From positions 1-64,000 of the forward strand of contig CAWHXP010000009.1 in assembly GCA_963833425.1 (NCBI GenBank): a stretch of 64,000 nt of DNA. The letters are read 5' to 3'. Under the pieces are notes generated by a model. The model saw only the letters and a list, made by a program, of their open reading frames with translations, did no database searches and was not told where the DNA came from. Shown here piece by piece: positions 36,795 through 61,875 of this stretch (positions are counted from its first letter, which is position 1; every line of letters starts with the position of its first letter). The translations under genes and the position numbers were made by a program. The DNA comes from an uncultured Methanosarcinaceae archaeon. Its GTDB lineage: Archaea > Halobacteriota > Methanosarcinia > Methanosarcinales > Methanosarcinaceae.

Positions 36795-38231
36795 CCGCTC
36801 ATTGTATGAGCAGATATATTAATAAGTATTTGGGAATGCGACAACAAGTATTCTTTCGGCTAAATTATTTTTTAGTAGCTATAACTTCTTCCCAAACTTA
36901 CATAGTAGATTAAGTTTGGAGCTATAAATTCTGCATTAAAAAAATAATCATACATATTTACATATTGTGAACTGCACTCAGCCGAAGAGTAAGTGGCTTT
37001 TAGTTTGTTTAAGTCTAACATATAAATTGATCTCTTAATTTATCATGTTTTGTAATTTTCTGATCAAGCGCCCAATTATAGACAAAAATGCAACTACTAA
37101 TATGTTGATTAAGTTGGTTAAATTAGTCAAATGTTGGATACGGCCCAAAAATGAATGCTTTTATCATACAACATTAATCTATTTTAACAATTAATATACT
37201 GTTTGGTAAATATTGAGCTTGGACACAATATAGATGTGAACACAAGAATCATACAAAATTTTTGCTAATTAATCATATTCGTTTTGTGTGCAAATATCGA
37301 AAGAAGATCCTAGAATTGCTTGATTAAGAACTCAAAAGATAATTCATAACATTGAAAAGTAGACCTTTTTGAAATATTAGAAATTGAGATCGTCAAAGAC
37401 CAAATTCACTTACTCTTAGAGCGGACCAAAAGTCAGCACTCTTGCAATAATTCGAAAAAATAAACAAGAGACTATAATTAGGCTATGGAAAACTCAAAAA
37501 AAATGTTTGAAAAATACTATTGTAAAGAAGATATGTTATTAGAAAGGTGGGTATCTCGCACCTGTTCTCGCCAATGTTAACATAGGAGCAGATGAAAACT
37601 ACATGCGGAAATAGAGTTGAAGTTGACGCTTGCATCCGCTAGTTGAAGATCTACCGGATTTAAGCTTTGTGTTATAACATGAGTATCCCAATAAAGCCCA
37701 AAATTAAGAGATTTTATACCCAAAATTTGATCACACTTAACAATTCCTAATGAAAATAATCCTATTTTTAGCTCAAGTTGAATTAAAAAAATTTATGAAT
37801 ATATAATATATTAGTTATATTTTATATGGAATATTCTTCATTTTTGTTACAATTAAGCTATTATTACTTTCAAAATTAACAGAAATATACTTTTTAATCC
37901 CTTTTTAGAAAGTGATGTGAGTATCAAAGTTCATCAAAGTTTAGTCCCACATAGATGATACATTTCATCACTCTTCGTCTTATTTTGTAGGAAAAACCAT
38001 TTCTACAATACTGTTTTCCCTTAATATCCATCAGAATGCTATACCCCCCAATAATCTGGTCTTCTTTATAATTTTCTATTTTATGTGCTTAATTTTTTTG
38101 TTAACTTTTTCTCAAAATAACCCACTCATTTATAAGTTTCATCCTTAACTTTGAATTGACTTAGAATCCTGAATAATTTAATTATTAATCTCATTTCTGA
38201 AACTCATAAAATATTTGCATCTTCTTTAGAT

Positions 38232-38909: not shown

Positions 38910-40318
38910 GTTCCCTCCATAATTACATCTAAATTAATACTTGAATATATATGTATGCTAGTATTTTTTTTAGAGAACATAGCTTTATACCTTAATTAAG
39001 TAGTTTCGAATCTCGTCAATTCTGGAACTATTTTTATGAATTAATCTAAACTCAAAACAGCTATGAAAGACGATGAAGTCGTTGATTATGACTATGAAAA
39101 ATGACTCTCCTCTGCATGGCCACAGTCTGTTTATTATCTGTGTTTCTGAATTATGTTGTATCATTGATATCATAATTTTGTCGTATAGTCACTTTACTGA
39201 ATGGGTCAAATTGTAATTATCAAGAAATTTTTAATGTTTTATTCTGTGCTGTGATATATTCTACAAATTATTTTGAATTTGCAATTAACGATCTAAGGTT
39301 AGTGATCTTAGAGATGATAATTTCCCAAGGGTGTAATAATTTTAATCATCTTTTGATTTTATCACATTTTCTTTCTGCATTTACCAGGAAATATATTTTT
39401 GGAAAGTATATATATCTTAAAGAAGCAAGCGACTGAAATTTTATCAAGTCAAAAAATTTTTTGGTAGGAAATTACATTTCTGAAAATCATTTTGAATCCA
39501 ATTTTTAAATGAGAACTCTTCTGCTTCTTCAGCATTATTGATTACTATATAGCTTGATTCTTCTTTCATAAAGGGATAATATAAAAACAACAATTTATCA
39601 TTTTAAATACTTTGATGGGTTATCATTAAAAAATTATACTCTCCAATTCTTCGTGTTTTCAACGAGATCCTATGATTTATTCGAAGAAGAACTGTTCGAT
39701 ATAAAAAGAAACTGTAATTATATTTAAAATTAGTCCATATGCATTGGATAACAGTTATATAAAATCCGCATTCTTATCAATATAATGGCAAACTGGGGGC
39801 AAAACGAATTGTTAGGTTGAAGTCTCACTCAAGTATATTAAATGTATATTTGTAATCGTTCAGTATTTTCTCAATTTGATCATGCAGAAATCATTCCTAC
39901 AATTTATAGGATTTCAATAAAATCCGATTTTCACGAGCCATCTATATACTATTTATAAGGATTGGATGATATTTAGGGGTTCATGAAATCCTACTTAATT
40001 TATTGGGAAACTTTTCGTATCATTTTTGAATTCATGTCTCATATCAAATAAATTAATTAGCTTTCGATTTTATTCTTGAGAAGAAAAATGAAGAATTTTG
40101 AATAATCGTCCGTAGTATTACACTTTAAGGCATGGAGTAAAAGTGGAAATATGAAAACCACGTTTTCACATGAAAAATACTATGTTGTAGGAAAATATAG
40201 GCTAAGTCCAAATAATATTTTAAAAAAAGCATTTGCTTAGAACTGATATAAATATTCTATAGTCCTGAGCGGTCTATACATCATAAGTATATAGTCCTAA
40301 ACAATATATTCCATATAC

Positions 40319-41530
40319 ATGACTAAATCAGTCGATGATGTTCATTGTATGGAAACTGGTTATTTAAATGCAAAACAAAGATTGAAAGACGCAGAAATTG
40401 GGGAAGAAAATAAAGCATTGATTGAAAATTTTTCAATTGCCCTTAGAAGAGAAGGGATAGCCAAAGCGACAATCACATGGTATTTAAATTATATAACCAG
40501 AATGGTTCAGCGCCTTCAGGAAATAGGATTCAATGAGAGTTTGGACAAGCTGGATTCCAAGACTTTTGACAGATTTCTTATTTTTCTTGAAGATGATAGG
40601 AAATTATCCGCTGGTACAATAAGAAATTATAAAAAATTGATAAAAAAATTTAATAAATCTGCCACTGATGGTAATCCTCCAAAATGGATCCGGGACCTGA
40701 AACTAAAATCGATTGAAAGTCCCATACAGCCTTCTGACATCCTTACTAAAGATGAGTTTACACATCTTCTTGAAGCCTGTAGACATCCACGGGATAAAGC
40801 CATAATTTCGATCCTTGCGGATGGTGGAATTAGAGTAGGAGCCTTAGAATCCTGTAGGATTAAAAATGTGGAGTTTAATCAATATGGAGCAATGATTTAC
40901 CTTTCAAAAACTGGAGTCAATAAAACCACACAGGCAAAGGGAATACCAATCACTTGGAGTGCGGGATTTTTAAATCAATGGCTTGCGATACATCCTCTCC
41001 ACGATGATATGGAAGCCCCCTTATGGGTTACTCTAGATAAAAATAAAGAAGCTTTGAGTTACAAAACAATACGAAAAATGATAAAGATTACAGCTGAAAA
41101 AGCAAGAATTAAGAAAAATGTATATCCGCATTTGCTACGGCATATGGCTATCACAAACTGGATTTTAGATAGTCTTAACGAGCAGGAAGTTAAGCGCAGA
41201 GCGGGCTGGAGTCGGGGAAGTACCCAAATGTTCAAAATTTATGCAAATTTCACGGATAAGGAAATCAATGACAGCATTTTCGAGAAATATGGACTCAAAA
41301 CAGAAGACAAAAGACATGTTACACTTAAGAAATGTCCACGATGTAATAATGTGCTAAAACCAGACAATAAATTTTGTAGCCAATGTGCACTGGTTCTTGA
41401 TCAAGAAACTGCTTTAAAACTAGAAAAAGACAAAGAAAAACTAGACTTGTCATTCTTAGAAGTTTCTAGTGTTGATCCAAAGGTTTTGGAGAAAATAGCC
41501 ATGGAAGTCAAAAAACTCCTAAATAAGTAA
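40319..41530 (+). CDS. Tyrosine recombinase/integrase with C-terminal zinc ribbon
   Basis: GGIRVG (R), KTT (K), HLLRH (HxxR), AGW, catalytic Y in KIYA, then CPRC...CSQC. Confidence 0.92.
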   Translation: MTKSVDDVHCMETGYLNAKQRLKDAEIGEENKALIENFSIALRREGIAKATITWYLNYITRMVQRLQEIGFNESLDKLDSKTFDRFLIFLEDDRKLSAGTIRNYKKLIKKFNKSATDGNPPKWIRDLKLKSIESPIQPSDILTKDEFTHLLEACRHPRDKAIISILADGGIRVGALESCRIKNVEFNQYGAMIYLSKTGVNKTTQAKGIPITWSAGFLNQWLAIHPLHDDMEAPLWVTLDKNKEALSYKTIRKMIKITAEKARIKKNVYPHLLRHMAITNWILDSLNEQEVKRRAGWSRGSTQMFKIYANFTDKEINDSIFEKYGLKTEDKRHVTLKKCPRCNNVLKPDNKFCSQCALVLDQETALKLEKDKEKLDLSFLEVSSVDPKVLEKIAMEVKKLLNK

Positions 41531-41850
41531 ACTTAAAATGTAAGCATAATATTTTTCTATTTATTTCTGTTATTAAATATCTTACTTAATATATAAAACA
41601 AAAGTATCTATACAAAATAAAAAGATTGCTTATTCAAAATAAGATTATTTATTTAATCTAACAACTTGGAAATATGTTAAATAAATCCATATACAAATAA
41701 ACGATAGAAAAAAGATAAAGTTGAATATTATGCGAGAGTATCTAGTAAATTCTTCTGTTAGACTTTCTTCAAATTACCAGTGTCTCTCTAAGTTTGTAAT
41801 TTTTTAATGGAAAATTATTTGGTCCCACTTAAATCAAGAATAAATGCTGG

Positions 41851-42901
41851 TCAAATTAAATCCATTTGATACTTTTCGCATTCCTTAATTCCTGCATCTA
41901 ATTGTTTGTCGTTTGTTATTATTAAGTATACCTCCATTGCTTTTCTTAATTCACGAATTTCGAAAATTGATTCTCTGAAATGAAGATTATTTGCATTTGA
42001 TATTTATTTTTGGGTTTTTTTTAAGAGTTCTATTATTTCTCTTTTTGATTGACGAATTTTTTCATCTGATATCATGTCTTTTGTTGCTGTGAGTTTTTCC
42101 CATCCTGGCATATATGCCTTTATTACATGGAGTGAGAATGGGTTTTCTGTACTGAACATTTTTTTAAGTTCATCCATGTTAGCACATTTTTTGAAGGCTC
42201 TATTGATGTAGAAGGTTGGTATATATATTCTCTTCCAGTTATCGGGATCTCGATCATGTTTCTGATCCGTTGTGCAGCTCATGCCCACAAAAAACATAAT
42301 AGGTTTTTTAATATAAACTATTAATTTATTCTTGTCAGAAATCAGAAAAAGTTTGAAAAAATCGGAGGATAACTGTAATTTTTTTTAAATGATTTTTCTC
42401 TTTTTTCAAAAAATATAACTTCGTTATATTTAGCCCTATCATTCTTATTTGGATCAAATATTTTATAGGAGAAGCTTACGGTAGTTTTTGGAGATGTACC
42501 GAACCAATTTTTATTTACATATCCCACAAATCTACGATTCAAAAATTCCAAATTATTTAAACCACAAATTAAATCTAAATTTTCGCGAAATATACATTCA
42601 AGAATCGAATCATTTTTTTGCATTTTGGGTATTAATTTTGGATATTCTTTGCATATGTTACGTATATTCTGAATACTGAAGACGATCGAATATAATGTGG
42701 AATCTTTTCGACCTTTTCCTGATTTTACCTTCTTATTTTCAATAAACCCATTTTTTTGAGTATGCCTAAATCTCTGGAAATAACATTGTAACCTGGCGGC
42801 TCATCTGGCTTAACATAACCTAGTTCACTTATTAATTCTACAGTCGTTTTAGAAAATTCTAATAAACTATCTAAAATTCGTTCCTGGTTTGTTTTTTTCA
42901 T
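41851..42901 (-). pseudogene. Winged-HTH domain protein (candidate element repressor), frameshifted at A-runs
   Basis: MKKTNQERILDSLLEFSKTTVELISELGY...YNVISRDLGILKK/GFIENKKVKSGKGRKDSTLYSI joins ORFs 42623-42342 and 42297-42004 through homopolymer slips. Confidence 0.65.
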
Positions 42902-43207
42902 GTTATGTGGATATTCTAATTTATATTAGAAGCTGTCTGAGAATATAAATTTAAAAGTCGGCGAATTTGGATATTTTGCTGATTTTCGCAATTTATTAAT
43001 TTTTGCCGATAAAAATTGTTTTAAAGTTTAAAGTCTATTAAACTTCTATTAAGATCACAATTAGGGAAAGTCTGCGAATAAGCTAGAAAACCAAAATCAA
43101 ATTTTCGCATACTTTGTGCTATTTGTTTATCTTATGTGAAATTTTTCCCTAACCTTTGGAGATTCGTCTTGACAAAAATAAAAACTTTATTAGATATAGG
43201 TGAAATC

Positions 43208-43387
43208 ATGTTTAAATTCGGGAAAAGAACTGTGATAAAACAGGGAGGAAGCTTTATGATAGCTCTACCGATGATTTGGATGAAATCGTGGGATTCAGAT
43301 GTGAAAAGTGTGATGATAGAGATGGACAGTGAAAATCAACTTAGAATTATAGCAGGTGATACGTGCCATGAAAATATCGTCTATTAA
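43208..43387 (+). CDS. AbrB/MazE/SpoVT-like DNA-binding protein
   Basis: MFKFGKRTVIKQGGSFMIALPMIWMK motif, GGTGA RBS, divergent from the wHTH gene. Confidence 0.8.
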   Translation: MFKFGKRTVIKQGGSFMIALPMIWMKSWDSDVKSVMIEMDSENQLRIIAGDTCHENIVY

Positions 43388-43413
43388 ACTACACAAGAGA
43401 GTTCGATAGCTGC

Positions 43414-43719
43414 ATGTTCAAAAAATGTAATGCATCTGGGAGAGAGAAGCAAATGAACGATCTAAAACCAGAAACGATAGAAATGTTTAAAAAATTTTAT
43501 ACAGAATTCTCTGACTTAATTGACTATAGAATTAAGTGTGGAAATGTGTATGAACAGGCACAGGCTATATTAATTAAAAGTGTTGCTAAAGGCGTTTCGC
43601 AAATACCGTCGCGGCCAAGCAGTCGGAAAGTTTGCAAAACACCCATACAGACGCCTACTTTCATCGCGAGTGACCCACAAGAACAGAGCGACCCAGAAAT
43701 GAGAAGTTACGCATCATGA
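43414..43719 (+). CDS. Hypothetical protein of the integrated element
   Basis: ORF co-oriented in the AbrB-rep operon. The start may be 43453. Confidence 0.55.
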   Translation: MFKKCNASGREKQMNDLKPETIEMFKKFYTEFSDLIDYRIKCGNVYEQAQAILIKSVAKGVSQIPSRPSSRKVCKTPIQTPTFIASDPQEQSDPEMRSYAS

Positions 43720-43836
43720 ATAACATAGTCTACATGCTAAATATAATTTCCTTTTTTAGCTCTGCAACTAACGGTTGCATGTACAGCCTAAGGACATCTA
43801 ATTCAACAAATTCGAAAATATGGATAATTTTGTAAG

Positions 43837-44241
43837 GTGATTACTATGAATTATAAAAAAGATTTAGCTATTCGGTGTAAAGAAAATTTGAATTCGTTAT
43901 CGGACGAATATATGCTTGAAATAACTGATGCCAGTTTTAGGCATATAGATGAAGTACTAATATCATTGTATGAAATATTAGACAATTATTTATCTCAAAT
44001 AAACGTTCTTCGGGAGCCTAAAATGTTTGCAGCACTTAGTTCTAAAACACTAAAAGTGGCTACATTATCAGATTTGGTCACTAAAAGTGCAGAAGAATTT
44101 GAATCCTTAGACATTCTCAAAGTGTTACTCGAGGGTAAGACAGTGCATAATATTTTCCAAGAAGGGGATTCTGTGAAAATCGAGATGCTTGGAGATAATG
44201 CATTGAAGATTTCCGGTGAACGACCTAGAGAAAATGAATAA
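43837..44241 (+). CDS. Hypothetical helical protein of the integrated element
   Basis: 134-aa ORF with AGGTGA RBS before the ATG at 43846. Confidence 0.65.
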   Translation: MITMNYKKDLAIRCKENLNSLSDEYMLEITDASFRHIDEVLISLYEILDNYLSQINVLREPKMFAALSSKTLKVATLSDLVTKSAEEFESLDILKVLLEGKTVHNIFQEGDSVKIEMLGDNALKISGERPRENE

Positions 44242-44961
44242 AGGTAACAAAAATTGAGAGATTTGAGCCCAGGACAGATTGAGCCCTGTCCTAGGCAATT
44301 CAGATCGTCATCTCCAATGACTGAACTATTATTAATTATACTTTCATAGTTAATAATAATATCTTATTCAAATGATGGTTCTGATGCTAAGGGTTCTGTT
44401 GTTCTCTTCGAATTCAAGGGGGAATAAAACCCATGAAATATTCTGCGTATAAACAAAGTGGTATTAGTGTTTTTTATCACAATTTTGATAGTACCAGATT
44501 TCAAATTACTTACAATTCTCTCGTCACATCCGCAGATGGACACAGAGACAAGGTGCTTAGTCAAATTAATAATTTGTTTTATTATTGGCATAGACAGAGT
44601 TGTTCTAGACATACCGATACTTATAACCCGTGGCGTCTTCCAGAAGAACCAGAGAATTGCTCGAGAGCAGATATTACGAGATCTTGTCGCTTGGGAGTGG
44701 GATTTTGATGCCAAGTTTCTCCGATCTGGAATATTTTTTTAGTAGTAGGCAGAGACCTACGACTCATCATCTCTATGAATTCCATATGGAACCTAAGAGA
44801 TGTTGGGAAGAGCAACAGGATAGAGGATGAATGAATTTTGATTCTCTTGATATGGTTTATTCTGAAAGAAGTAGACAAAACATCAGGCATTTCATAAATT
44901 TAAAACGAGCACCTGATCAGTCCTTTTCCAATGTATCGGTTACGGATCTACAGTTTGAAGG

Positions 44962-47210
44962 ATGGCTGAAAAGATGAGTTCTGAACCTACAATGCTTGAA
45001 GCTGCATTAAATTACACAAGGTTAGGAATGATAGTACATCCTTTGATAAATCCCAATGCACCTGAGATAAACCCTAAAACAGGGGGAAAACAGAGCCCAG
45101 GTAAAGGAGTTTTGGTAAATGACTGGCAAAAAAGGGAAAGTGCCTTAACGGAAAGAGAAATAGAAAAATATTGGGGATCTAGTAGGAGTTTTTACTTTGA
45201 GAATGCAAACATTGGCTTGCAATGCGGGAAAAGATCAGGTCTTATTCTAATCGATCTGGACGACTGGAATCCTGCAATATGGAACGAACTCACAGCTGGA
45301 TTAAACACAGATAATTGGTTGATGTCGAAAAGGACAACGAACCGGGGACATATCTTCTTTAAATACACCGAAGCTCTGAAAGCTCAAAAAACATCACGAT
45401 TTAGGCATAGAAATTTTAACAAATGGCAATAATGCAGTCCTACCCCCAAGCAAGCATAAAAACGGGCAGATTTACTCATTTAATAGGGAAATCAGGACAC
45501 TTGAAGATGCCCCAGAAATGCCTGAAAAACTCATAAACAGGCTTATAGCCCTATTTGGAACCAATAATAAGTTAAAAGTGATTTTGCAAAAGTGCAAGCC
45601 CTGTCTACGTGAAAAATTCAAAGCCCATCAAGAAAGTCCGAATATCACAGAATTGCATACCAGCACAGGCAGACAGTTAACTCTGGCACTTATGGCAGAT
45701 ATGAAGGCTAATGGTGCAGACCCTGAAATTTTACACCTTGCCTGTAAATACCTTTTTAGAGATGATTACACACAGTCACAAAGTGATTCTGAACTAGGTG
45801 GAGACGGATGCAAAATAAAAAGCCCTTGGAAATGTGAAACTATCCAGAGAGAGTTAGGAAGCATTACACTTGCTGATGACCTTAACTCAAAATGTGATAA
45901 TTGCACTTTCAGAGGCCAGAATAAACAGATATATAGCCAGAAGAAATCCGAACAAGAAGTTCAAAAAGATAATCCCCTAAACATAGACTATGATGAAATG
46001 GACCTTAGCCCAGAACTTATCCAGCATGCAGATGAAGAATCAGATCGGGTATTGAGAGAAGGCGACCCGATAGACTATATATTGAACACAATCGCAAAAA
46101 AGCATATAGGGGACCGAAGATACACAAGAAGCGATATGTGTCTCAATAGCCTGTCAGTGTTGTCTTAATACTGCAGGCTTGCAAATATCAGTAAATGGAG
46201 CTTCAGGCTCTGGTAAATCACACGGAATAAAAACACATCTACATTTAATTCCCAAAAAATGGAAACGTGTAACCGGATTAAGCGCGAAGGCTGCTTACTA
46301 CATGAATTTAGCTCCAGGTATCATTATTTTTTCGGATGACAAGGATCCTGACCCTGCATTTGAAGAAGTCATAAAACAAGCTACAACAAACTTTCAGGAA
46401 GAAACTTACTACACAACCGTTAAAGATCAAAAACAAATATCTCTGGTAATTCCACCCCGTATAAATTGGTACTTAACGAATGTGGAAAGCTTTGTATCAG
46501 ATCAATTATCAAAGCGTCAACTCACCTTTGATGCAGACAGCAATCCCGAGCAGAAAAAAAGGATATTTGATGCGCAGAAACACGAAGCTGCGAATGGTGG
46601 GAACGGGCAGGAAATAAACACTGAAGTACTTATATGTAGACGAATGTTTGGAAAACTTAAACAGAATTTATTTAATGTTAAAATACCCTTTGTGGATAGG
46701 ATAAATCTACATGATATGAATAATTCACGCATATTTCCAATGTTCCTTGATATGATTCGCGGTTTTGCTGCCTTCAAATGGGAGCAGAGAATCTTTGACG
46801 ACGGTGGATATTTACTAGCTGAGATTGAAGACTTCGAAAGGGCAAAAAGGTTATTTGAAGCTCAAAAAGAGAACACAGTAACAAAAATTAACGAAAATGA
46901 GAGACGGATAATCCAATATATAGCGAGTAAAGGGAAATGCACAATTAATGATATATCGAGTTACACAGGCATTAATTACCAATCCGTTAAACGCGCTCTA
47001 TTTGGAAGAAAAGATAGGGAAGTGGGTGGGCTTCTTGACAAGATCAAAGAGTTAAAAATGGACGAAGAAACTGATATAGACTACAAAAGGGCAGGAGATA
47101 CCTTGATAAGCAGTAGTGGCAGGAAGGCTTTTAAATTCAGTATAGATAACTCAAAGTTCAATTTCTGGTCACTATTTGATAAGGAGTTTATCTTCCTGAA
47201 GGATGCCTGA
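44962..47210 (+). pseudogene. Bifunctional primase-polymerase / P-loop helicase / wHTH replication protein (about 750 aa), two frameshifts
   Basis: Prim-Pol motifs NIGLQCG, LIDLDD and RGHIFF. A slip in the A-run near 45390 restores HHDLGIEILTNGNNAVLPPSKH. A slip near 46115 joins to Walker A GASGSGKS. C-terminal wHTH CTINDISSYTGINYQSV. Confidence 0.85.
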
Positions 47211-47222
47211 TTAGGGTATGAA

Positions 47223-47532
47223 GTCAACTGATCCTTTTATTCCCCTAAAATTCCCATTTATCCCAAAATATTCCCGTTTTATTCCCATTGAAACGTAATC
47301 AGTTGACATTTTGTTCCCAAAAACCCGAAAATGCAAGAGAGAAATAGAAAATTACACTTTTTGACATTCTAATATTTCGGCTATTACTTTAAAATATCAT
47401 ATATCATTTTTTTATTTTGGGAACATAATTCCCCTTTTTATTATGATTTTAATTCCCCTGTTATTGTTTTTATATTATTTTTAATGGGAATATAATGGAA
47501 AAATAACAGGAATAATTGGGAACTTTGGGGAA
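47223..47532. promoter_or_regulatory. Candidate replication origin with inverted iteron arrays
   Basis: TTCCC-type pentamers at 47240, 47251, 47260, 47271, 47282 and 47314. GGGAA-type at 47486, 47496, 47508, 47518 and 47528. AT-rich core between them. 10-bp IR gtcaactgat/atcagttgac. Conserved in the second copy. Confidence 0.7.
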
Positions 47533-47796
47533 TATAATAGTGGAAGACTTGCTTCTAATATGAAATATACATAACGAACAGGGTTAGCCTTAATATCACA
47601 TTTTTGTCTGTTATATTTTTAAAATTTCCCCGTTTAAACTTCTTCCATCAAAATTTTCTACATAACCAGCTATTCAAGCATCAAAATAGTATCAATAACC
47701 ATTGCAATTACTAAGTGATAATAAAGCATAAATACTAATAAATAGTATATAGTAGCGTAGTTTTTTGAAACTTGACTGGCTGGTAGATTGGATAAT

Positions 47797-47945
47797 ATGA
47801 AAGGTGGTAAAACAAGATTCCAACAGAAGTTTACAGAAGATACGTTCCTGAACGCTCTATCAATTGATAGCATAAAGTCTACTGCAACTGTTATTAGGTG
47901 GTAGGATGCAGCAGGTCCACAGCTAAAAACATGCTTTATAAGTGT
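47797..47945 (+). pseudogene. Truncated small HTH protein
   Basis: MKGGKTRFQQKFTEDTFLNALSIDSIKSTATVI, then after a shift VVGCSRSTAKNMLYK (HTH-like). Confidence 0.5.
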
Positions 47946-48417
47946 TGTAGAAATCTATTGCAATGGATAAAACTTTTAGCCAGGTATTTCACCGAGTCAC
48001 TTGTACAGTGGCTGGATTTCCGTTGTCTGTCCATAATTTTCTCTTTATGCAATCCGTTTATCTGATTCAGTCAGTTGAATTTCTCACGATCTGTTTACCA
48101 CACAGTGGGGAAAATGTCTCACGTTTTCTGGGATTTGCCTACCCCCTGATCGGTACAATATCCGAAGTAATTTGATTGATTTAGCGCAGTGCCTTCTGAG
48201 ATAGCTTGATGTCGGCTGTCGATCCAGTTTGTATCAACTGTTACATGGCGTGACCACGATAGAGACATTTACTGCCGGGTTGGCGAGCATCCCGACAGCG
48301 GCTAACTAGCTCCGGAATCACTGTCAATCTACCATATCTGTGAATCTGCAATAAAAACATCGTGTAGAGTTTAGCCATCAAATAGTCGATAAATTGATTC
48401 CTCAACAGGTCATTGGA

Positions 48418-49176
48418 TTAATATTGATCCCTTAGAAATTCGATATCGCTGCGTCGATAGTTTCGTAATAACCAGAGACCATAGATGAAAAGCATCAAAG
48501 AGAACGCAAGCAATGCCAGATCCCAAATGGAATTTGTCAGAAATGACAGGCAATCCCACAACCAATGAATTATGATTACCGGAATAATTGTGTTTAGGCG
48601 AATTCGCAAAGCTGCAGTCCAGATACCAAACGTACATGCAAAAAAAGCCTGAAGGACGCTCGCTCTAAAATCTCCAGTGATTAAGCTATTTAATATATGG
48701 ACTGAACCAAAAATAATCGCTGTGATCCATACTGCACGCCATATCCCAAATGATGAAGAAGCCCCATATAACAATATGCCACGAAACATCAGTTCCTCGT
48801 TGATTCCTACCATCATGGTATTGATGATTACAATCGTAAGAACCCCGAGTGATGGTAGATTGGCATATAAAACAATCAGTAGTATGAATAAAAGCGATAG
48901 AGCTGGGGGCCATAACAAACGTAAATCTCGGAAATTATTTGGGCTTTTCCATCCAACTTGAGGCCACCATCTTAAATAAGTAATAACTCCAGTCAAAAAG
49001 ACAATTTCAACTAGCTCCCCAAACATGATCTGTTTTTCAACTAATCTTTCAAGTTGAATGTGATGCCCCTTAACCTGTAGAAGTCCTCCTACCACTATGA
49101 AACTTAGCCAAACTATAAATATTATCAGTGAAGTAGGCCAAGATTTTCGTGATACATTCATTTTTGTTTTCTCCAA
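48418..49176 (-). CDS. CPBP family intramembrane glutamic endopeptidase (CAAX protease/Abi)
   Basis: EELMFRG, FGSVH and HWLWD motifs; multiple TM segments. Confidence 0.9.
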   Translation of the reverse strand: MEKTKMNVSRKSWPTSLIIFIVWLSFIVVGGLLQVKGHHIQLERLVEKQIMFGELVEIVFLTGVITYLRWWPQVGWKSPNNFRDLRLLWPPALSLLFILLIVLYANLPSLGVLTIVIINTMMVGINEELMFRGILLYGASSSFGIWRAVWITAIIFGSVHILNSLITGDFRASVLQAFFACTFGIWTAALRIRLNTIIPVIIIHWLWDCLSFLTNSIWDLALLAFSLMLFIYGLWLLRNYRRSDIEFLRDQY

Positions 49177-50208
49177 AAGAGACGTAAACCATCATTATCA
49201 TAGATATTTGAGTCATTAGTATCAAATTCAAATCATGAATTGATGTTGTTTTTAGCTTCTTCATTATGTAGTTTGTCTGTCCTGTACAAAAGGTGAAGAA
49301 TATGTTCCATCAACGACATCAAGCCCTAGAACACCTTTGTAGGAGACCATTAGTTTGGTTTATCTATAACATTGTTTAGCCTGAAATGAGTGAAGATCCT
49401 ATGTTGAGTAAAGAGTAGTCAAATGTGATATTCTGCCCTACATCATTTTAAGTTGATGGGAATATTTTTTGACTATTAAACTGCATATTATTCGATTTAA
49501 AGCTTAAAGAGATTCTTTTGATTCTCAAAAACAGTACTCATTTACCTTTTTAGTCAAAATTAATTCTCAAATAAACACTAATTTTAGACATAAATTGACA
49601 AATAAATTCAAAAATAAAAGAAATTAGGGCAGATTTCCAAAAAGGTTATTAGTGGTGTAACTATAAAATAATTTACGATTAAAATGTGGGGTGATGACGG
49701 ACATTGTGTGCGAACCCAAAAAAACTGTCATTACTTGGCCATAGCTCAAGATGCTTTTAGGATCATAACTCAATTTTCTTCTTTTTATTTGCTATCAAGG
49801 TTAATATTTTTCTAGTAGCTAATGAATCGACTTACTCTCAGCTAGTACAGCAAATTTTTTATTCTCTTCTTTTGGATAAACCCTACAATGCTCAATAAAA
49901 TGTCTTAAATTGTTCCACAATCGATCTTCATATATTTTTAATATTCATTTCATTTACAGTGAGTATTGTAATATAGAATCTCAAATTAGCTCTTGAAATC
50001 TCTAATCTAATTTGATGCTCGTTTCTTTTAAATATTCATTGCCTAACGGTAACATAAGTACATATCGACTCGTTCGGCAGCCTATTCGCTCACTTTGTCA
50101 GCGATCCAGGAAACTTCGCGTAGATAAATAACACTGGTTCATTGTTCTGGCCGTTATCTTTTCTCCACTTCTAGCCAAGTTTATACTCCTGCAAAGATAA
50201 ATAAAAAC

Positions 50209-50748
50209 TTATTTTTTCTCGATGATCCCACAGATAACCCGCACGCCACTGTTTCCAGCAGGGTTTGTCATCTCATCATCAGGATCAGCATGGATAACCA
50301 GTGAAGTGCCGTTGGCTGTGAATAGCGTAGTCGGCCCTGATGACAATTTCACAAGGGTGGTGGTGATATTCATATGCCCCATACCATTCTCTCCCACTTC
50401 TAGATTGGGTAAATCACCTGCATGGGGGCCTTTCGGGTTGTTTAGGCCATGTTCTTTGCTCAAAGGATTGTAGTGGTCGCCGGCCGAGATGAACGACGGT
50501 CCAGTGCAATTTCCTTTATTATGGATATGAATGCCATGCAAACCTGGTGTCAGGCCGTTCGCGTTGACGTTGATGTGGACCAGGCCACTAGCATCCTCGG
50601 TAAAGTTAGCCAGCCCCACTGTATCGCCCTTCGCATTTTTCAAGGTAGCTATAGCATCATGTGTGGTACCTTCATAGGCATAGATCGTAGTTGCAGCCAT
50701 CAGCATCGCCGAGGTAATTATTACTAATAACAATCCAGTTTTCATCAA
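50209..50748 (-). CDS. sodC: Secreted Cu/Zn superoxide dismutase
   Basis: Signal peptide; HGIHIH, GDHYNP, HG...HAGDLPN, IHADPDD, GNSGVRVICG. Confidence 0.93.
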   Translation of the reverse strand: MMKTGLLLVIITSAMLMAATTIYAYEGTTHDAIATLKNAKGDTVGLANFTEDASGLVHINVNANGLTPGLHGIHIHNKGNCTGPSFISAGDHYNPLSKEHGLNNPKGPHAGDLPNLEVGENGMGHMNITTTLVKLSSGPTTLFTANGTSLVIHADPDDEMTNPAGNSGVRVICGIIEKK

Positions 50749-51282
50749 CTATTCCTCTAAAATTTTTCTGCAAATTAGTAATCAGAATTATTTAGTGCAT
50801 CATAATGGACTTCAGACTTCATAGTAGGCAAGAGTCCCAGACACCTAATATAATCAATTACTGGATACATTTTCCCCATCTTGCTAGATCCCTCTGAAAT
50901 AAAATACCTCAAATTCCTGTGCTAATTAGTTATTACAATTTAGGTTTGCGTTGAATTTTGATGCCCACAGTTCCTGTAGCTCCCCTATAGACACTGTAGC
51001 TTCCTTAAAGGCACTGTCACATGCAGTAAGACATACGCGATTGAACTAAGAAATCTATAACTTACGCACTTAAGGATAAAAATCAAGAACAATAGATAGT
51101 TTGGTCAAATTCATTATTCAGACAGTTGAACTGCGTAGATCCTAAAAATCAATAAGCTTTTTAAACCTAAAACTGCCGAAATTATAATATTTTTGGTAGA
51201 TCTATTCACCGTTTATTTTGCTCCTCAAGCACATAAGTCCTAATGATAAAAGAAATATCTATCATTTTGCAAGATGAAAGAA

Positions 51283-51618
51283 TCAAATTGCTCTACCATT
51301 ATTGCAAAAATACATTATTGTATTTGCATTCTCCAGGCAGTAATCGTCCCAGACAGAGCAGGTTTTACAAATGCAATATCTGTTAGGATCTAAGTCGCTG
51401 CAGGTAGCAGTACCAGATGAACAGTAGACTCCAGGAACCTTGTAAGGCTCTGGAGCTTCATCTTTCCCTAAACTTTTCATTTCATTTTTTAAGTTTCCAA
51501 TTTTATCCAATGTGCACGCACTGTCAACTTGGACAGGACACTGGGGACACATGCATCTTTCGATATTTGTTACAGCATAAGGAACTTTTACTTATCCAGA
51601 TGTACCCATTTCAATCAT
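51283..51618 (-). pseudogene. DUF2769-like Cys-rich protein with an early in-frame TAA
   Basis: GAGGGAG RBS, MIEMGTSG*VKVPYAVTNIERCMCPQCPVQ...YCSSG...CICKTC...YFC. TAA at 51592-51594; could restart at Met 51552. Confidence 0.7.
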
Positions 51619-52792
51619 TTGACTCCCTCTATAAGTTATCTTTATTTAGACTTACTTCACGATAAATATGAAAGTCTTGAAAATCTTTATATGAAACTCT
51701 TCATATGTTCATTTTAAGTTACAGTATACAATTGCCCAGTATTTATTTTAAATTAATTATACAAAAAATAGTTTCTGAATAAAAATTACTTCCCCATAAA
51801 ATGTTTTAAAACCAAAACATAATTTTATATTAATTATGTTTTTATTCTACTCGGAGATCCTCGCAAATTTAACATTGAGCTTTTTCCTAGAAAGCATCCA
51901 GAATTCCAGATATAGGAATTTCGAAACAGAATATAGTCAAATTTATTGAAGTTGTGAATATTTCATAAAATCGATACAGAAGGAATTAGCTATACTGTGT
52001 ATGCAGTCCCTACTATATCCTCAAGATTAATACTGCAAAAAAAATTGAAGATAATTTGAAAGACTTTAGGGATTTGCTCTATTTAAGGATGTTAAGCGAA
52101 TAAGTGATGGTGTGGCTTCCAGGCTTCCTTTTGCTCTCAACTATAATATCAGTGTCAATAGCAGACTTTTGCAGGGTTACATAAACACAAAAAAAATGAT
52201 ATTAATTGATTATGTGCAAATTCCAAAATGGGAGTCTTTTATTTAATTAGCTTAGATGGTTTAGTCGATCTTAGATGTAAAAAAAGTTGATCTTTTGAGC
52301 TGCGGGAGAAAAGATGCCTGCAGCCCATAGAAGGATTGGTTGAAGGTAGGGTAGACCTTTGAATTAGAACTAGATTCAATTTATTATATATTTTTTGGAT
52401 ATATTCTAGATAGAATACTCCTTAACTAGTAAGTATTAAACTTTGGACGAAATCTTATTTTAAAATCAAAGTACGCCTATTTAATAATATAATTTATATA
52501 TTTATTAAATAATAAAAGTGTATGAAAAATATCGCGTGTTTACTTACCATGCATCGTAATCTAAATCATGGAAATCAAATTGGTCAAAAACTGACTTAAT
52601 CTGGGGTCACTAGTTAGTATTTTATCGAAAGTAATGAGTGGTAACTATTGCCCTACTTAGAAAACGTCTATAATCGTCTTATAATGGCTCAGATTTGATG
52701 GATATGAATCCCGCTGCAGTGCAGAACGAACGAACTAAATATTAAAATACAAAACAAGCTAATATTATTTGTAAAGAAAAAACGATGAATCT

Positions 52793-53215
52793 ATGAATCG
52801 CCCATCAAAGCTAACACCTGAAATTCAACAGAGAATCGGTGATAATATTGCACTCGGCTTGACTTATAAGTTGGCTGTCGAATCTGCTTGTGTCACTTAC
52901 AAAACGTTCAATTTTTTGATGACTAAGGGAAAAAATTCAAAATATGGGGAATACATTGAGTTCTATAAATTTATTCAAAAATGCAACGCGGATGCGGCAA
53001 ATAAATGCCTTGAGAAACTAAACGAAGCAGCAAAAGCAGGAAACTGCACGGTGTGTATGTGGATTTTGTCAAGAAGGTTCCATGAAGATTTCGGCAGAAG
53101 ACAATATCGTAAAATGGATGTCGTTTCAGAAAACCTGAATCAGAATGTTAAGATAATTGTCAATGATGCAGATGAAATTAGAGAGATAATTCTAAAAAAG
53201 TTTGCTTTCAATTAA
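52793..53215 (+). CDS. Terminase small subunit-like protein
   Basis: N-terminal RPSKLTPE plus HTH, a helical middle (KFIQKCNADAA), WILSRRFHEDFGRR and a beta-rich tail. This is the pattern of Sf6/P22-type TerS-like proteins, recognised by eye. Confidence 0.6.
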   Translation: MNRPSKLTPEIQQRIGDNIALGLTYKLAVESACVTYKTFNFLMTKGKNSKYGEYIEFYKFIQKCNADAANKCLEKLNEAAKAGNCTVCMWILSRRFHEDFGRRQYRKMDVVSENLNQNVKIIVNDADEIREIILKKFAFN

Positions 53216-53672
53216 GGAATCAATTTTAGCAAGTTTGTCTCCAACTAACTGAAGACGTTTGTATCCTTCTTTATGAGCAAAAATCAGTAAGAGTTTTTAT
53301 AAATATGAATTGTTATCAAGAGATTTAAACTCTCCAATGCTTAAATGCAGAGGCGTTTATCGAAAATATCTATATTCTTTTCTTCCACACCAAATTCCTC
53401 TTTTCATAAAAGATCCCGTTTCCCTTGTACCATCACTTATAATGAGTCTTTCAATTTTTATAAGTCTCCGTACTAATCGGCTAATCATCATAGCACAAAT
53501 TGGTCCAAGTTTTCGGTGATTGCACTCATGTTGGTCATACTCTTGAATTTGTATTTTCTGTATGCTCTTCAGAAAGACTGTGACTTTTGTGATTTTTCAA
53601 GATGAAAGAGCGGAGCCACCCAAAAAACAGGCGCGTTCAAAATGTTTTCCTCATCCAGGTTAAAAACAAATT

Positions 53673-55073
53673 TTATACTTCTTTATGTGGATATGCCATC
53701 CGATACGGGTCCACGATTCGGTCAAACTCTTCATCCGATATCAGGTTCAAGGCGATATTTGCTTCCTTTAAAGAAGAGTTATGATCATCGGCATAATGGG
53801 CTAGCTGAGATGCTTTGTCATACCCGATTTCTGGGCTCAGTGCAGTTACGAGCATCAGCGATTCCTTTAGGTACTGATCGATCCGCTGTTTGTTTGGTTG
53901 CAGATCCTTAAGCAGATACCGCGTAAAGGTATCGCAGCTATCGGAGATAATTCGAACTGACTGGACGATGTTGAAGATCATCAGCGGCTTGTATACATTC
54001 ATCTCGAGATAACCGCCGGCATTGGCTAAGGAGACAGCATTGTCGTACCCCATTACCTGTACGGCGACCATGGTCATGGCCTCACACTGGGTTGGATTTA
54101 CCTTACCTGGCATAATAGAGGATCCTGGCTCATTGGATGGTATTATCAGTTCGTGTAAGCCGGCCCGGGGTCCGCAGCTCAGGAGCCGAATATCATTAGC
54201 AATTTTATACAACGACGTTGCTAGGACCTTCACTGCCCCACTGGCTGCAGCCAGTGCATCGTGCGATCCCTGCAAAGCAAACTTGTTCGGTGAGGTGATG
54301 AACGGAAACCCTGTAAACTGGCCGATTTTTTTTGCCACCAGAGCATCGAATCCACTGGGGGAATTTAACCCAGTACCGACTGCTGTCCCGCCAAGTGCAA
54401 GTGTATACAAATCATCCCGTGCCCGCCCCAAGCGGCTGATAGCCTCATCTAGCATCGTTACATACCCGGAAAACTCCTGACCCAAAGTGAGGGGAACTGC
54501 ATCCTGCAGATGAGTCCTCCCGATCTTGACTATGGAATCCCAAGCTTCAGCTTTTTGCTTCAGGTCTGTCTGCATGTTTTTCAAGGATGGGATCAGCCGA
54601 TTATTGAAGAGGAAGATGGTGGTGATATGCATCCCTGTCGGGAACGCATCGTTGGAAGACTGCGATTTATTGACGTCGTCGTTCGGATGAATCGGAATTT
54701 TGCTCCCCATCACCCCGCCTGAGAGCTCGATCGCCCGGTTGGAAATGACTTCATTCACGTTCATGTTCGACTGGGTACCACTCCCAGTCATCCAGACGTG
54801 CAGTGGAAAATGGTGGTCCAACTTTCCGCTGATCACCTCATCGGCAACCCGGACGATTAGATCTGCTTTTTCCTTTTCCAGGGTGCCCAGTTCAAAATTA
54901 GTCAGCGCTGCAGCCTTTTTAATAAGGGCGAGTGAATGTATCATCTCGATTGGAATGAGATCATCACCTATTGAAAAATGCATCAACGAGCGTTGTGTCT
55001 GTGCACCCCAGTACCGATCGGCTGGAACCTCGATGCTTCCCATGCTGTCGGTCTCCATCCTCTTATCAGTCAT
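53673..55073 (-). CDS. fumC: Class II fumarate hydratase
   Basis: WGAQTQRS, TGSGTQSNMNVNE, SQSSND, GRTHLQDA, GSSIMPGKVNP. Confidence 0.96.
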   Translation of the reverse strand: MTDKRMETDSMGSIEVPADRYWGAQTQRSLMHFSIGDDLIPIEMIHSLALIKKAAALTNFELGTLEKEKADLIVRVADEVISGKLDHHFPLHVWMTGSGTQSNMNVNEVISNRAIELSGGVMGSKIPIHPNDDVNKSQSSNDAFPTGMHITTIFLFNNRLIPSLKNMQTDLKQKAEAWDSIVKIGRTHLQDAVPLTLGQEFSGYVTMLDEAISRLGRARDDLYTLALGGTAVGTGLNSPSGFDALVAKKIGQFTGFPFITSPNKFALQGSHDALAAASGAVKVLATSLYKIANDIRLLSCGPRAGLHELIIPSNEPGSSIMPGKVNPTQCEAMTMVAVQVMGYDNAVSLANAGGYLEMNVYKPLMIFNIVQSVRIISDSCDTFTRYLLKDLQPNKQRIDQYLKESLMLVTALSPEIGYDKASQLAHYADDHNSSLKEANIALNLISDEEFDRIVDPYRMAYPHKEV

Positions 55074-55085
55074 CCAAATATCCCC

Positions 55086-56732
55086 TCATACGATATAGCT
55101 CTCATAATATGGATGATACATCTTTGATTCCACCAGTTTGATGATATGGTCGTCATAATTTGGTCTCTCCACCCGTGCAAACCCTCTTTCAAAGATCACC
55201 CTGGCCACGGCTTCCGCCATCGCGGTTGCCACAGTGACGATCTGGGATTCAGGCGGGAAGAGCATCTCCTTATCAATCTGCTCCCTTGTGAGCTGGTTCG
55301 CTAGTGTCTTGGCGGCAACGAGAAACATCTCATCGGTGACCCTTGTTGCTTCCGTTGCGAAGACGGCCATGCCCACTGGGGGGAATATCCATAGGTTATT
55401 GGCTTGTGCGGGCTGGAACTCACGGCCCTGGTAGGCGACCTGAGGGAACAGGACACCGGCTGCAAACAATGCCTTTCCATTGGAATATCTGTAGGCCTCT
55501 TCTGCAGTGCACTCTTCCTGAGTCGTCGGGTTGGAGAGTGGGAAGATTAACGGTCGTTCATTGATCTCGGCCATTGCCTGAATCACTTCTTTGGTGAATA
55601 AGTTCGGTTGGGTCGAAACTCCTACAATTGCCGTGGGCTTTATCGACTGAATAGATTCCACAAAAGACACCAGTGGCGAGTGCTCGTGAGCATACGGTTG
55701 CTTAAAGAACTCCAGACGTTCTCGACCTTTGACCACCAGGCCTTTCGTATCGAACATCCAGCACCGAGTCCGTGCTTGCTCGTCCGTCAGTCCCTCTTGT
55801 TTCATCGCATAGCAGAGCATATCTGCGATTCCCCGTGCTGCAGAGCCGGCACCGAGAAAGAGGATGGTATGCTCGCTGATCTTCTTCCCGGTGTAGCGCT
55901 CTGCCGAATAAAATCCAGCTGCTGTCACTGCACCAGTCCCTTGGATGTCGTCATTGAACATGCACACCTTCTCACGATATCTCTCCAGGAGTGAAACGGC
56001 ATGGTAATTGGCGAAATCTTCAAACTGGATACAACACCGGGGGAATAATTCCTGTACTGCCTGTACAAACTCATCCACTAGCGCGAGATATTCGGAGCCA
56101 TCTGTACGTGGCTGACGCAACCCCATATAGAGTGAGTCATTCAGGAGCTCCGGGGTGTTCGTCCCGACGTCCAGGTGTACCGGCAACTGGTACTGCGGAG
56201 GTACACCTGCGATCGCCGTGTACAGGGCGAGTTTTCCGATTGGTATGCCCATGCCATTTGTTCCTAGATCCCCAAGGCCCAGAATCCTTTCGCCGTCGGT
56301 GATGACGATAAACCGAACATCCTTCTCCGGCCACTGCTGCAATATAGATTTAATCTTTCCTTTATCCGCGAGTGAGAGATAGATTCCTCGTGTTTTCCGG
56401 AAGATATGACCGAACTTGAGACATGCCTCACCTACCGTTGGGTCATAGACAATCGGAAGGAACGTAGCAGGGTCCGAGATCAATAACCGATAATATAGGG
56501 TCTCGTTCCTGTCCTGCAAGTTGGCTAGGTACACAAATTTGTCGATATCTTGTGATAGATGAGATATCTGGCTTAATACACGCTGTACCTGCGTATCCTC
56601 GCTCTCGATAGCAGCAGGAAAGAATCCTTCTAGACCTAGAAGTCTTCGTTCTTCCAGTGAAAAGGCTCCGTCTTTATTATAGCGAGGGTTATTCAATAAC
56701 TCAATGCCTTTCGGGATATTTTTTTTCTCCAT
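55086..56732 (-). CDS. maeA: NAD-dependent malic enzyme
   Basis: TDGERILGLGDLG, GIPIGKLALY, QFEDF, FNDDIQGT, GAGSA, PLSNPT, QANN. Confidence 0.94.
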   Translation of the reverse strand: MEKKNIPKGIELLNNPRYNKDGAFSLEERRLLGLEGFFPAAIESEDTQVQRVLSQISHLSQDIDKFVYLANLQDRNETLYYRLLISDPATFLPIVYDPTVGEACLKFGHIFRKTRGIYLSLADKGKIKSILQQWPEKDVRFIVITDGERILGLGDLGTNGMGIPIGKLALYTAIAGVPPQYQLPVHLDVGTNTPELLNDSLYMGLRQPRTDGSEYLALVDEFVQAVQELFPRCCIQFEDFANYHAVSLLERYREKVCMFNDDIQGTGAVTAAGFYSAERYTGKKISEHTILFLGAGSAARGIADMLCYAMKQEGLTDEQARTRCWMFDTKGLVVKGRERLEFFKQPYAHEHSPLVSFVESIQSIKPTAIVGVSTQPNLFTKEVIQAMAEINERPLIFPLSNPTTQEECTAEEAYRYSNGKALFAAGVLFPQVAYQGREFQPAQANNLWIFPPVGMAVFATEATRVTDEMFLVAAKTLANQLTREQIDKEMLFPPESQIVTVATAMAEAVARVIFERGFARVERPNYDDHIIKLVESKMYHPYYESYIV

Positions 56733-58813: not shown

Positions 58814-58833
58814 CTAGATAGGAAGATACACAA

Positions 58834-59451: not shown

Positions 59452-59647
59452 AATGCTTATTGATTGATGCATTGGTAAACAGATGGATGTTTAGAACTGG
59501 CGGAGCAGATTCACTGAGGGAATGCTTGCTATATCTAACGCACTTTTGATTACACACTATGATGTTTGAAAAGTTCATCTTCCCAGTATATAAAAAATCA
59601 ATTAAGTAAAATTGCAGTAAAATCATGGAGGCAAACGTTCTACGAAT

Positions 59648-61674: not shown

Positions 61675-61875
61675 ATCATAAGAATCTGATCAAACTTAGC
61701 CATGAGAATGCAAAAACCAAAGAAAACCGGCATTCTACACCAGAAATTTAGATCATGTCAAAAGTTTAGCTCTATTATAAAAAGCTTAAAAACAAGGAAT
61801 GAATCGTATAAAGCACAAAGATAATAAAAAATGACAATATGACAAATACGAACTAGATACTAATAATATACTAAT

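Follow-up and report, generated by a model that had tools for sequence, protein, structure and literature searches.

A terminase small-subunit homologue marks a family of small integrative elements in Methanosarcina that may be satellites of head-tailed viruses

We identified an integrative element in a window of 64,000 nucleotides from an uncultured Methanosarcinaceae archaeon (assembly GCA_963833425.1, contig CAWHXP010000009.1, positions 1 to 64,000). It spans approximately 13 kb and ends in an intact gene for a homologue of the small subunit of viral terminases (TerS). Judged against its relatives, it is a decayed copy from a family of small integrative elements of Methanosarcina. Members of this family share a common plan: an integrase, a convergent regulator with a divergent small DNA-binding open reading frame (ORF), a replication protein with an iteron origin, a variable cargo slot, a small helix-turn-helix (HTH) ORF, a 132-amino-acid ORF and a terminal TerS. 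The reading that fits best, to which we give an even chance, is a satellite of a head-tailed virus resembling the phage-inducible chromosomal islands (PICIs) of bacteria, to which the pathogenicity islands of Staphylococcus aureus (SaPIs) belong. More broadly, we propose, with confidence just short of even, that Methanosarcina harbors a large and undescribed class of such satellites, approximately 9 kb in length and with TerS as their only packaging gene, that exchange integrases, at least five replicons and cargo, and that have left dozens of TerS copies and relics per genome in a peat clade. The cargo of this class would comprise oxidative-stress genes (in the window), KAP-NTPase and radical-SAM genes (in one sister element) and a BREX system (next to another).

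The gene on which this proposal turns is the last of the element:

52793 to 53215, plus strand: TerS homologue of 140 amino acids (aa), intact, terminal gene

Sequence profile (PHROG), fold and synteny all identify the 140-aa protein as a homologue of TerS. Residues 1–119 match phrog_4102, 'terminase small subunit' (1.7e-15). The window protein matches no Pfam family, and members of its family give weak Pfam matches to HTH_29 (4/38), HTH_28 (3/38) and HTH_Tnp_1 (2/38). An AlphaFold2 model built from 38 sequences (pLDDT 70, low only at 100–126) has an N-terminal HTH and a long helix, with helices predicted at 9–20, 25–31 and 36–48, followed by the long helix at 53–81. The best match to this model among 48,161 solved chains was the Sf6 small terminase (gp1), with 84 residues aligned over residues 4–96 at a root-mean-square deviation of 4.4 Å and Z 7.9, where a Z below 8 is not conclusive for helical proteins; the next match was a SANT domain (Z 5.8). 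Foldseek against the PDB also ranked the Sf6 small terminase first, weakly (E 0.38), and in a comparison with predicted viral structures (BFVD) all top matches were tailed-phage proteins (best E 3.8e-6), several of them named small terminase. Comparison with PDB sequences returned designed helical proteins or chance matches only.

In the IMG/VR viral contigs, 29 loci carry TerS relatives (identity up to 38%), and the next ORF is a large terminase subunit (TerL) recognized by Pfam in 9 of the 24 loci scanned, often followed by a portal gene. The isolated Methanobacterium virus PhiF3 encodes a homologue (ORF8; 28% identity, E 4e-8) directly before TerL (ORF9) and portal (ORF10). Another Methanosarcina species (genome G081) has a homologue with 36% identity whose gene overlaps with the beginning of a Terminase_6N/6C gene. 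All of these TerL-adjacent homologues match phrog_4102, and they have the motif WILERRFxE(D/E)(F/W)GRR and a similar C-terminal stretch in common with the element TerS. One G081 locus (L052, G081:C342, 992–7832) contains a DUF5906 primase-helicase, TerS and TerL in a row, and its contig ends after TerL; it may be part of a full head-tailed provirus or an element that has a terminase but lacks a capsid.

TerS is under purifying selection, with a median dN/dS of 0.18 for 37 intact copies compared in 594 pairs. In a tree of 34 sequences, which took in every third intact copy only, the element copies of the expanded clade form one group (92/96) and solitary copies of other species form another (100/99). 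Both groups sit with the TerL-adjacent TerS of G081, apart from most viral TerS (99/98). The sequence nearest to the window TerS comes from an element whose replicase is of another kind, which indicates that modules are shuffled.

By tblastn, this 4.07-Mb genome contains 32 TerS-like loci, of which about a dozen are full-length and open. In a survey of 59 genomes of the genus, five sister species have 11 to 50 TerS matches each, about a dozen others have one to three distant copies, and the rest have none; many of the matches are fragments. Among 15 other genera of the family, a single genome out of 55 has a match. Related contigs come from metagenome-assembled genomes of Methanosarcina or Methanosarcinaceae, sampled in bogs, fens and elsewhere, and a protein database holds 502 clusters of TerS relatives at E ≤0.001, mostly unnamed. 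A simple repeat-spacing scan detected no convincing CRISPR array in the genome.

We examined TerS neighborhoods in 20 stretches of this genome (115 ORFs of at least 230 aa) and at 77 loci of related genomes, where 856 ORFs of at least 120 aa were clustered and 41 representatives of clusters present in at least three loci were scanned. In all loci with a detected integrase, TerS comes last, and the integrase lies 3.3–9.5 kb upstream on the same strand. The recurrent integrase is a tyrosine integrase with a zinc ribbon, and a 132-aa ORF recurs just upstream of terS. At least five replication modules accompany TerS: Prim-Pol/AAA+; NrS-1 primase-DUF3987-PolA; D5_N-DUF5906; DUF927/Cch; and UvrD with a Toprim protein. 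The second of these, an NrS-1-type primase-DUF3987-exonuclease-PolA fusion of up to 1248 aa, occurs in 18 loci. Because TerS travels with at least five replication modules, it is, on these comparisons, the conserved hallmark of the family. Single copies are found in complete genomes of other Methanosarcina species (G113 and G071). In G113, a two-contig, 99%-complete genome, int, a minus-strand regulator, a DUF927 replication protein and TerS lie within 8.5 kb, and in G105 the order is int, UvrD, TerS.

No TerL, portal or capsid family was found among the 115 ORFs or the 41 cluster representatives. A search of this genome, whose marker-based completeness is 80%, and of the five sister genomes gave neither Terminase_6N (PF03237) nor Phage_capsid. 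In the genus, 11 of the 59 genomes contain Terminase_6N, and thus terminases of head-tailed viruses do occur in it. A first-pass annotation of this DNA had proposed a satellite with a TerS-like gene and had set three outcomes against that proposal, none of which we observed. The 140-aa protein does not take an unrelated HTH fold, its best solved match being Sf6 TerS and its relatives lying directly upstream of TerL; the homologous loci scanned above lack TerL and capsid genes; and rep and terS occur together in the four sister copies of this genome and in sister species. We regard these outcomes as excluded, and a decayed provirus or an HTH protein borne by an insertion sequence (IS) as unlikely. 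The earlier report that the window lacks capsid, portal, large terminase and tail genes was also borne out, since Pfam recognized none in its 39 ORFs.

The architecture and boundaries of the element were derived from four sister copies in the same genome. The remaining features of the window copy are as follows:

40259 to 40318, no strand: conserved left end, with an imperfect inverted repeat GGTCTATA-N11-TATAGTCC 30–50 nucleotides upstream of the integrase gene (int)
40319 to 41530, plus strand: tyrosine integrase, 403 aa, intact, with a SAM-like N-domain and a C-terminal zinc ribbon
41887 to 42934, minus strand: regulator pseudogene, convergent with int and spread over three frames
43136 to 43387, plus strand: small ORF, 83 aa from GTG (59 aa from ATG at 43208), divergent from the regulator
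43414 to 43719, plus strand: conserved small ORF, 101 aa
43837 to 44241, plus strand: conserved ORF, 134 aa
44962 to 47210, plus strand: replication protein (Rep) pseudogene with Prim-Pol, linker, AAA+ ATPase (MCM/RuvB/Orc-like) and winged helix, as three ORFs in three frames
47235 to 47537, no strand: putative replication origin, with direct and inverted ATTCCC-type iterons around an A+T-rich stretch
47797 to 47942, plus strand: truncated remnant of a 74-aa HTH ORF ('orf77')
47943 to 52724, no strand: cargo or replacement segment of 4.8 kb, not shared with sister copies

Homology to the sister copies on three contigs (C20, C10 and C5) runs from 40259/40271, which is 48–60 nucleotides upstream of int, to 47942, and again from 52725 to 53204. 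The limits of 40319 and 53215 drawn in the first-pass annotation fit this homology. Only about 0.8 kb separates the two blocks in C10 and C5, so that the compact, core element measures approximately 9 kb, while the window copy with its cargo spans 13 kb. The SaPI-like layout of about 13 kb claimed earlier holds in its order, with int, regulator, Prim-Pol/P-loop rep, repeat-rich origin, cargo and terminal TerS. However, Rep and the regulator are broken, a small ORF is cut short and another is lacking; the integrase, three small ORFs and TerS are still open. The window copy has thus lost Rep, the regulator and part of the module next to terS, and would at best be mobilized in trans. On C5 (approximately 160.2–161.1 kb) and C10 (approximately 94.1–94.9 kb), a transposase of IS240 (IS6 family) lies at the same position right after terS, and homology ends at the far end of this IS, which suggests that whole elements were duplicated in connection with the IS.

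The integrase matches PF00589 Phage_integrase (4.1e-16), PF13495 (1.2e-8) and, weakly, zinc-ribbon families in Pfam, as well as phrog_1 (1e-27) in PHROG, and intact copies on C20, C10 and C5 are 81–82% identical to it. The inverted repeat upstream of int is found in 4/4 copies and does not recur at the right ends after terS in these four. It is a candidate integrase or operator site.

The regulator converges with int, as the first-pass annotation had it. The pair that this annotation described as a winged HTH gene (minus strand) and a divergent AbrB gene (plus strand) is present as a minus-strand gene and a divergent small ORF, but the former lies in three frames: intact sister regulators (263–339 aa) match window frames -3, -2 and -1 in turn by tblastn. 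Its HTH is weakly supported (TrmB/PadR, E approximately 0.04, Pfam, in the intact C20 protein), and the AbrB assignment has no Pfam match. The small ORF at 43136–43387, which is kept in sister copies at 63–88%, matches nothing in Pfam or PHROG. A protein-atlas feature search placed a cluster carrying PF04014 MazE_antitoxin at rank 3 (score 0.85, below the 0.9 line), and the product is possibly AbrB/MazE-like. The 101-aa ORF is 100, 90 and 54% identical in C20, C10 and C5, with no family match above threshold. The 134-aa ORF is present in 4/4 sister copies, also with no family match, and has a 49% relative on contig C8 beside another TerS-bearing element.

Both domains of the claimed 'Prim-Pol plus P-loop helicase Rep' are present in the window, although not in one gene. 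The Prim-Pol domain (44962–45432) matches PF09250 (6.1e-9, Pfam), and the P-loop part (46179–47210) contains the Walker A motif GASGSGKS in translation. An AlphaFold2 model of this 343-aa part from 29 homologues (pLDDT 84) ends in a winged helix, and Foldseek matched it to the MCM, RuvB and Orc/Cdc6 AAA+ ATPases (E approximately 1e-8), supporting its prediction as an AAA+ replicative ATPase. No match to Rep was found among PDB sequences. The C-terminal AAA+ half carries the precomputed Pfam label PF27228, and in different relatives the half so labeled is fused to Prim-Pol, NrS-1-type or DnaG/Toprim-type primase domains. Such relatives occur in records from Methanosarcina mazei, Methanomethylovorans and Methanolobus. 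From these fusions, the replicase family is seen to be modular.

The split in the window Rep is due to two +1 insertions, at reference nucleotides 412 (A5 to A6) and 1142 (outside a homopolymer), where the reference is the intact 751-aa and 744-aa genes of sister species G104. The C20 copy carries the same two insertions. The C10 copy has TGA at codon 115 and an insertion, and the C5 copy has TAA at codon 205 and a deletion. Pure assembly error is disfavored as an explanation because nonsense substitutions are present and long housekeeping genes in the window are open. Read-through at pyrrolysine codons was considered and rejected, the lesions being +1/-1 indels with TGA or TAA and no TAG.

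The iteron origin described in the first-pass annotation was recovered as a repeat-rich region, with 11 TTCCC/GGGAA motifs in 47240–47532 versus 152 in the whole 64 kb, and with inverted arms of 59 nucleotides that are 71% complementary. The region is conserved together with the 3' end of Rep in sister copies and at a second place in the window, and it would act as the origin:

62709 to 63458, plus strand: second partial Rep 3' end and iteron origin, 84.3% identical over 753 nucleotides to 46868–47612

This second origin copy has 11 TTCCC/GGGAA motifs in 63081–63431. No integrase, TerS or other part of an element was found near it on the contig, and it is a relic of another element.

Of the module that precedes terS, tblastn finds in the window only residues 1–33 and 35–49 of orf77, and the 132-aa ORF is absent. 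Intact sister orf77 proteins give HTH-type matches (PF22168, 1.5e-5) and precede the 132-aa ORF and terS. The segment between the orf77 remnant and terS contains:

48131 to 48276, no strand: repeat insertion of 146 nucleotides, skipped in contigs of 4 public runs
48418 to 49176, minus strand: Rce1/CAAX-type protease (Pfam)
50209 to 50748, minus strand: secreted Cu/Zn superoxide dismutase (Pfam)
51283 to 51552, minus strand: Cys-rich ORF, 89 aa

The segment has paralogues at 81–85% elsewhere in the genome, and none of the window cargo matches PADLOC. Different copies carry different extra DNA between origin and terS, as do the window copy and C20, and this position is therefore a real cargo slot. 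In the two copies of G104 with intact Rep, one slot contains TPR, DHH and NADH:flavin oxidoreductase genes, and the other (element L060, G104:C43, 3720–11801) contains a KAP-NTPase/PifA-like gene, two radical-SAM genes and a GNAT gene. A type-1 BREX system (BrxA, BrxB, BrxC and PglX) directly follows TerS of an element in G083 (L050, G083:C9, 9867–19087). By analogy with bacterial satellites, the BREX and KAP-NTPase/radical-SAM genes are possible defense cargo. The superoxide dismutase and the Cys-rich ORF (50148–51600) lie within contigs of high depth from one metatranscriptome run; contigs of this kind are no proof of expression. Other TerS-element neighborhoods contain genes for catalase, universal stress protein and NADH:flavin oxidoreductase. 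The gene content hints at oxidative-stress cargo.

Homology to the sister copies is lost immediately after terS, at a repeat resembling a miniature inverted-repeat transposable element (MITE):

53216 to 53375, no strand: short interspersed MITE-like repeat of approximately 155 nucleotides, outside the element, right after the terS stop codon

This repeat has 117 genomic copies, of which only this one and one other are beside or near a TerS-like locus, and at least 40 copies were scored in each of the 5 sister genomes. A link between the repeat and TerS loci was rejected, as it is not associated with the other TerS loci. MITE-like families are also found at 48131–48276, approximately 39915–40002, 51696–51838 (with 56893–56991, 57243–57374 and 5862–5927), and short interspersed repeats fill the long intergenic regions of this lineage.

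Directly to the right of the element, the region 53673–61700 has a G+C content of approximately 0.50 versus approximately 0.36 for the genome. Its genes code for a class II fumarase, malic enzyme, an unassigned protein of 441 aa, isochorismatase and a protein resembling 6-phosphogluconate dehydrogenase. Placed between the element and the second Rep/origin remnant, this region has the appearance of an island acquired on its own. To the left, a stretch of 905 nucleotides (36871–37776) has no counterpart in any of the five sister genomes, whose loci are syntenic apart from it, and is thus an insertion in this genome.

We propose that infection by, or induction of, a head-tailed virus would trigger excision of the element by its integrase, and that the excised element would replicate from its own origin. 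Its TerS could then bind a site on the element DNA and recruit the large terminase of the helper, such that element DNA would be packaged into helper capsids. By analogy with bacterial satellites, binding of its own DNA and delivery to a helper TerL would be the most economical function for a TerS with no large subunit beside it. We count in favor of this proposal that the compact copies of approximately 9 kb match the PICI median of 9.5 kb, that they have counterparts of four of the five PICI core components, and that the structural genes excluded by the PICI definition are absent, as size, core and definition are given in the available text of the bacterial survey (PMC10085698).

Several observations weigh against a satellite. 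The window copy is decayed and probably unable to replicate alone, which weakens the support it lends, and Rep is broken in all four copies of this genome. We identified no helper virus, and found among IMG/VR viral contigs no Rep relative and no TerS above 38% identity. TerS of the expanded clade is only 34–44% identical to the one TerL-adjacent TerS of the same genus. No capsid-remodeling gene was recognized. There are 25–50 TerS matches per genome in one clade, many of them fragments, a number far above the at most 5 PICIs per bacterial genome in the available survey text (PMC10085698), and for some copies the route of spread may have been IS-mediated or segmental duplication instead of packaging. 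In addition, TerS is tied to at least five replication modules rather than to this Rep, so that the unit of interest is the broad family and not the window locus.

The ends of the element also count on this side. The first-pass annotation proposed to define att sites by comparison with empty sites; this comparison yielded neither att sites nor an empty site. A search for exact and near-exact repeats between the DNA upstream of int and that following terS gave chance 9–11-mers only in the four copies. An empty site could not be reconstructed in the five sister genomes, where the left flank is syntenic only to window positions 39509–39690, with a contig end or unrelated DNA beyond. The right flank starts with the MITE, which saturated the flank search, and the fumarase gene beyond it was not found in the five sisters. 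No same-strand joint of the element ends was seen in contigs of public runs, which cover at most 24% of sampled words. A joint between opposite strands at 40002/53209 (sides of 28–31 nucleotides, 2 runs) was rejected as a trace of excision. It touches the short repeat at approximately 39915–40002, which has approximately 20 genomic copies, and we read it as another locus.

The main rival explanation is that these are plasmid-like integrative elements that need no helper, in which a TerS-derived HTH protein has been recruited for excision, regulation or another task of the element itself, for instance as a recombination directionality factor, a transcription regulator or a partition protein. 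In essence the protein consists of an HTH and a long helix, individual members give the weak HTH_29, HTH_28 and HTH_Tnp_1 matches noted above, and one source names 6 of the 120 listed relatives 'transposase'. Neither TerS nor Rep has a close relative in IMG/VR and, from the layout, circularization would bring terS, which is at the far end of the element from int, to a position just upstream of int. However, homology to genuine TerS is full-length and includes the C-terminal part, and the element proteins group with a TerL-adjacent TerS of the same genus. Moreover, TerS is kept across different integrase types and replicases, as expected if it works with an external partner. A recombination directionality factor is expected to co-vary with its integrase, and typical excisionases are smaller than 140 aa; since TerS does not follow one integrase type, such a role is less expected for it. 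We consider this rival a serious one, yet on balance doubtful.

It is considerably less probable that the elements are remnants of head-tailed proviruses in which a lone terS is left from a terS-terL-portal block after loss of the structural genes. The window copy is clearly decaying, many TerS-like loci of the genome are fragments with stops, and DUF5906 and NrS-1-type primase modules also occur in viral contigs beside TerS and TerL. Against this, no TerL, portal or capsid family, whole or fragmentary, appeared in either set of neighborhoods or, for the two families searched genome-wide, in the six genomes; terS invariably closes the element and directly precedes host DNA, a MITE or an IS; compact copies with intact genes exist; and TerS is under purifying selection. 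Least probable of all, in our judgment very remote, is that the gene is an OrfA-type HTH of an IS or transposon, copied by transposition unrelated to the integrase/Rep island. The 32 loci in this genome, the up to 50 matches in sister genomes, the 'transposase' names from one source and the IS240 transposases adjoining some copies would fit such a gene. However, TerS copies are 45–80% identical, unlike the near-identical copies of active IS families, and there is no constant transposase neighbor, with IS240 in 8 of the 77 loci at varying distance and on either strand. The constant neighbors are instead the integrase and replication genes, in fixed order.

Packaging of these elements by means of their TerS, if it occurs, would bring PICI-type piracy of terminases into the archaeal domain. 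Satellites of this kind would also imply so far unisolated head-tailed viruses of Methanosarcina, and a route for the flow of stress and defense genes among key methane producers of peat and wetlands. Related single-copy elements in complete Methanosarcina genomes make the satellite hypothesis testable at the bench. Should the satellite idea fail, what remains is a new and abundant class of integrative elements with a hallmark derived from viral TerS and an AAA+ replicase family that fuses with several primase types.

The PICI core, in the available text of de Sousa et al. 2023 (PMC10085698), consists of an integrase, a regulation module homologous to alpA, merR or stl, a primase-replicase, a capsid-morphogenesis gene that is often absent (as in SaPI-type variants) and a small terminase, and the definition given there excludes tail, holin, portal and head-tail connector genes. 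The elements described here resemble PICIs, as portrayed there, in their succession of integrase, regulation module and primase-replicase with the small terminase near the far end, in their lack of other structural or lysis genes, in accessory genes held in variable slots, and in modules swapped between elements. They contain an integrase, a primase-replicase (a pseudogene in the window, intact in sister species) and TerS, and no tail, holin, portal or connector gene was recognized among the 39 window ORFs, the 115 ORFs near TerS loci of this genome or the 41 cluster representatives. No alpA-, merR- or stl-type regulator was matched by Pfam, where the gene at the expected place may be analogous, and no ORF of the element or its sister copies matched a capsid-morphogenesis family; the conserved 132-aa ORF, like the 134-aa one, falls in no known family. 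Further differences are the archaeal host, an int that converges on the regulator (in the PICIs so described it diverges) and a Rep that combines Prim-Pol with an MCM/Orc-like AAA+ domain and a winged helix. Because the regulator lacks homology to the defining ones, the host is archaeal, and induction and packaging are inferred, we do not file the element as a PICI; it would work like one on paper only.

The element TerS shares an N-terminal HTH, a long helix and a similar length with PhiF3 ORF8 and Sf6 gp1, and with PhiF3 ORF8 also phrog_4102 and the motif. In viruses the gene is followed directly by TerL and portal genes, whereas in the element it is last and has neither beside it. No TerL adjoins any copy of the clade that we examined; this is the point of the satellite reading and no argument against TerS homology. 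The element loci examined likewise contain none of the HK97-type capsid, portal, TerL and tail genes of a provirus. Rep resembles the pRN1-type replicases in its N-terminal Prim-Pol, P-loop ATPase and C-terminal winged helix within a small integrative or plasmid element, as far as the available text of PMC4158269 describes them. However, the ATPase of pRN1 ORF904 is described there as superfamily 3, in contrast to the MCM/RuvB/Orc-like AAA+ fold predicted by our model.

A full-text literature search found no description of archaeal islands bearing TerS, although the 2023 compendium of methanogen viruses (Medvedeva et al.) was outside its coverage and may bear on novelty. The accessible text of the bacterial satellite survey (PMC10085698) has no occurrence of archaea. 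That of a paper on archaeal 'dark matter' islands (PMC4158269) treats other prim-pol elements and a proposed fusellovirus-type satellite, and not this one. In the accessible part of a preprint on haloarchaeal viruses (Zhou et al. 2025, 10.1101/2025.02.15.638363), pSSVi and pSSVx are the sole archaeal satellites described before its own candidates. As presented there, pSSVx, pSSVi and SRCE are similar to our element in combining a plasmid-type replication module (prim-pol in pSSVx) with a small piece of viral morphogenesis or packaging machinery, and in riding in helper virions, as proposed or shown. However, their helpers are spindle-shaped viruses, and in the same account they carry an AAA+ ATPase and/or a major capsid protein and no terminase subunit, whereas the element described here points to helpers that are head-tailed and package their DNA with a terminase.

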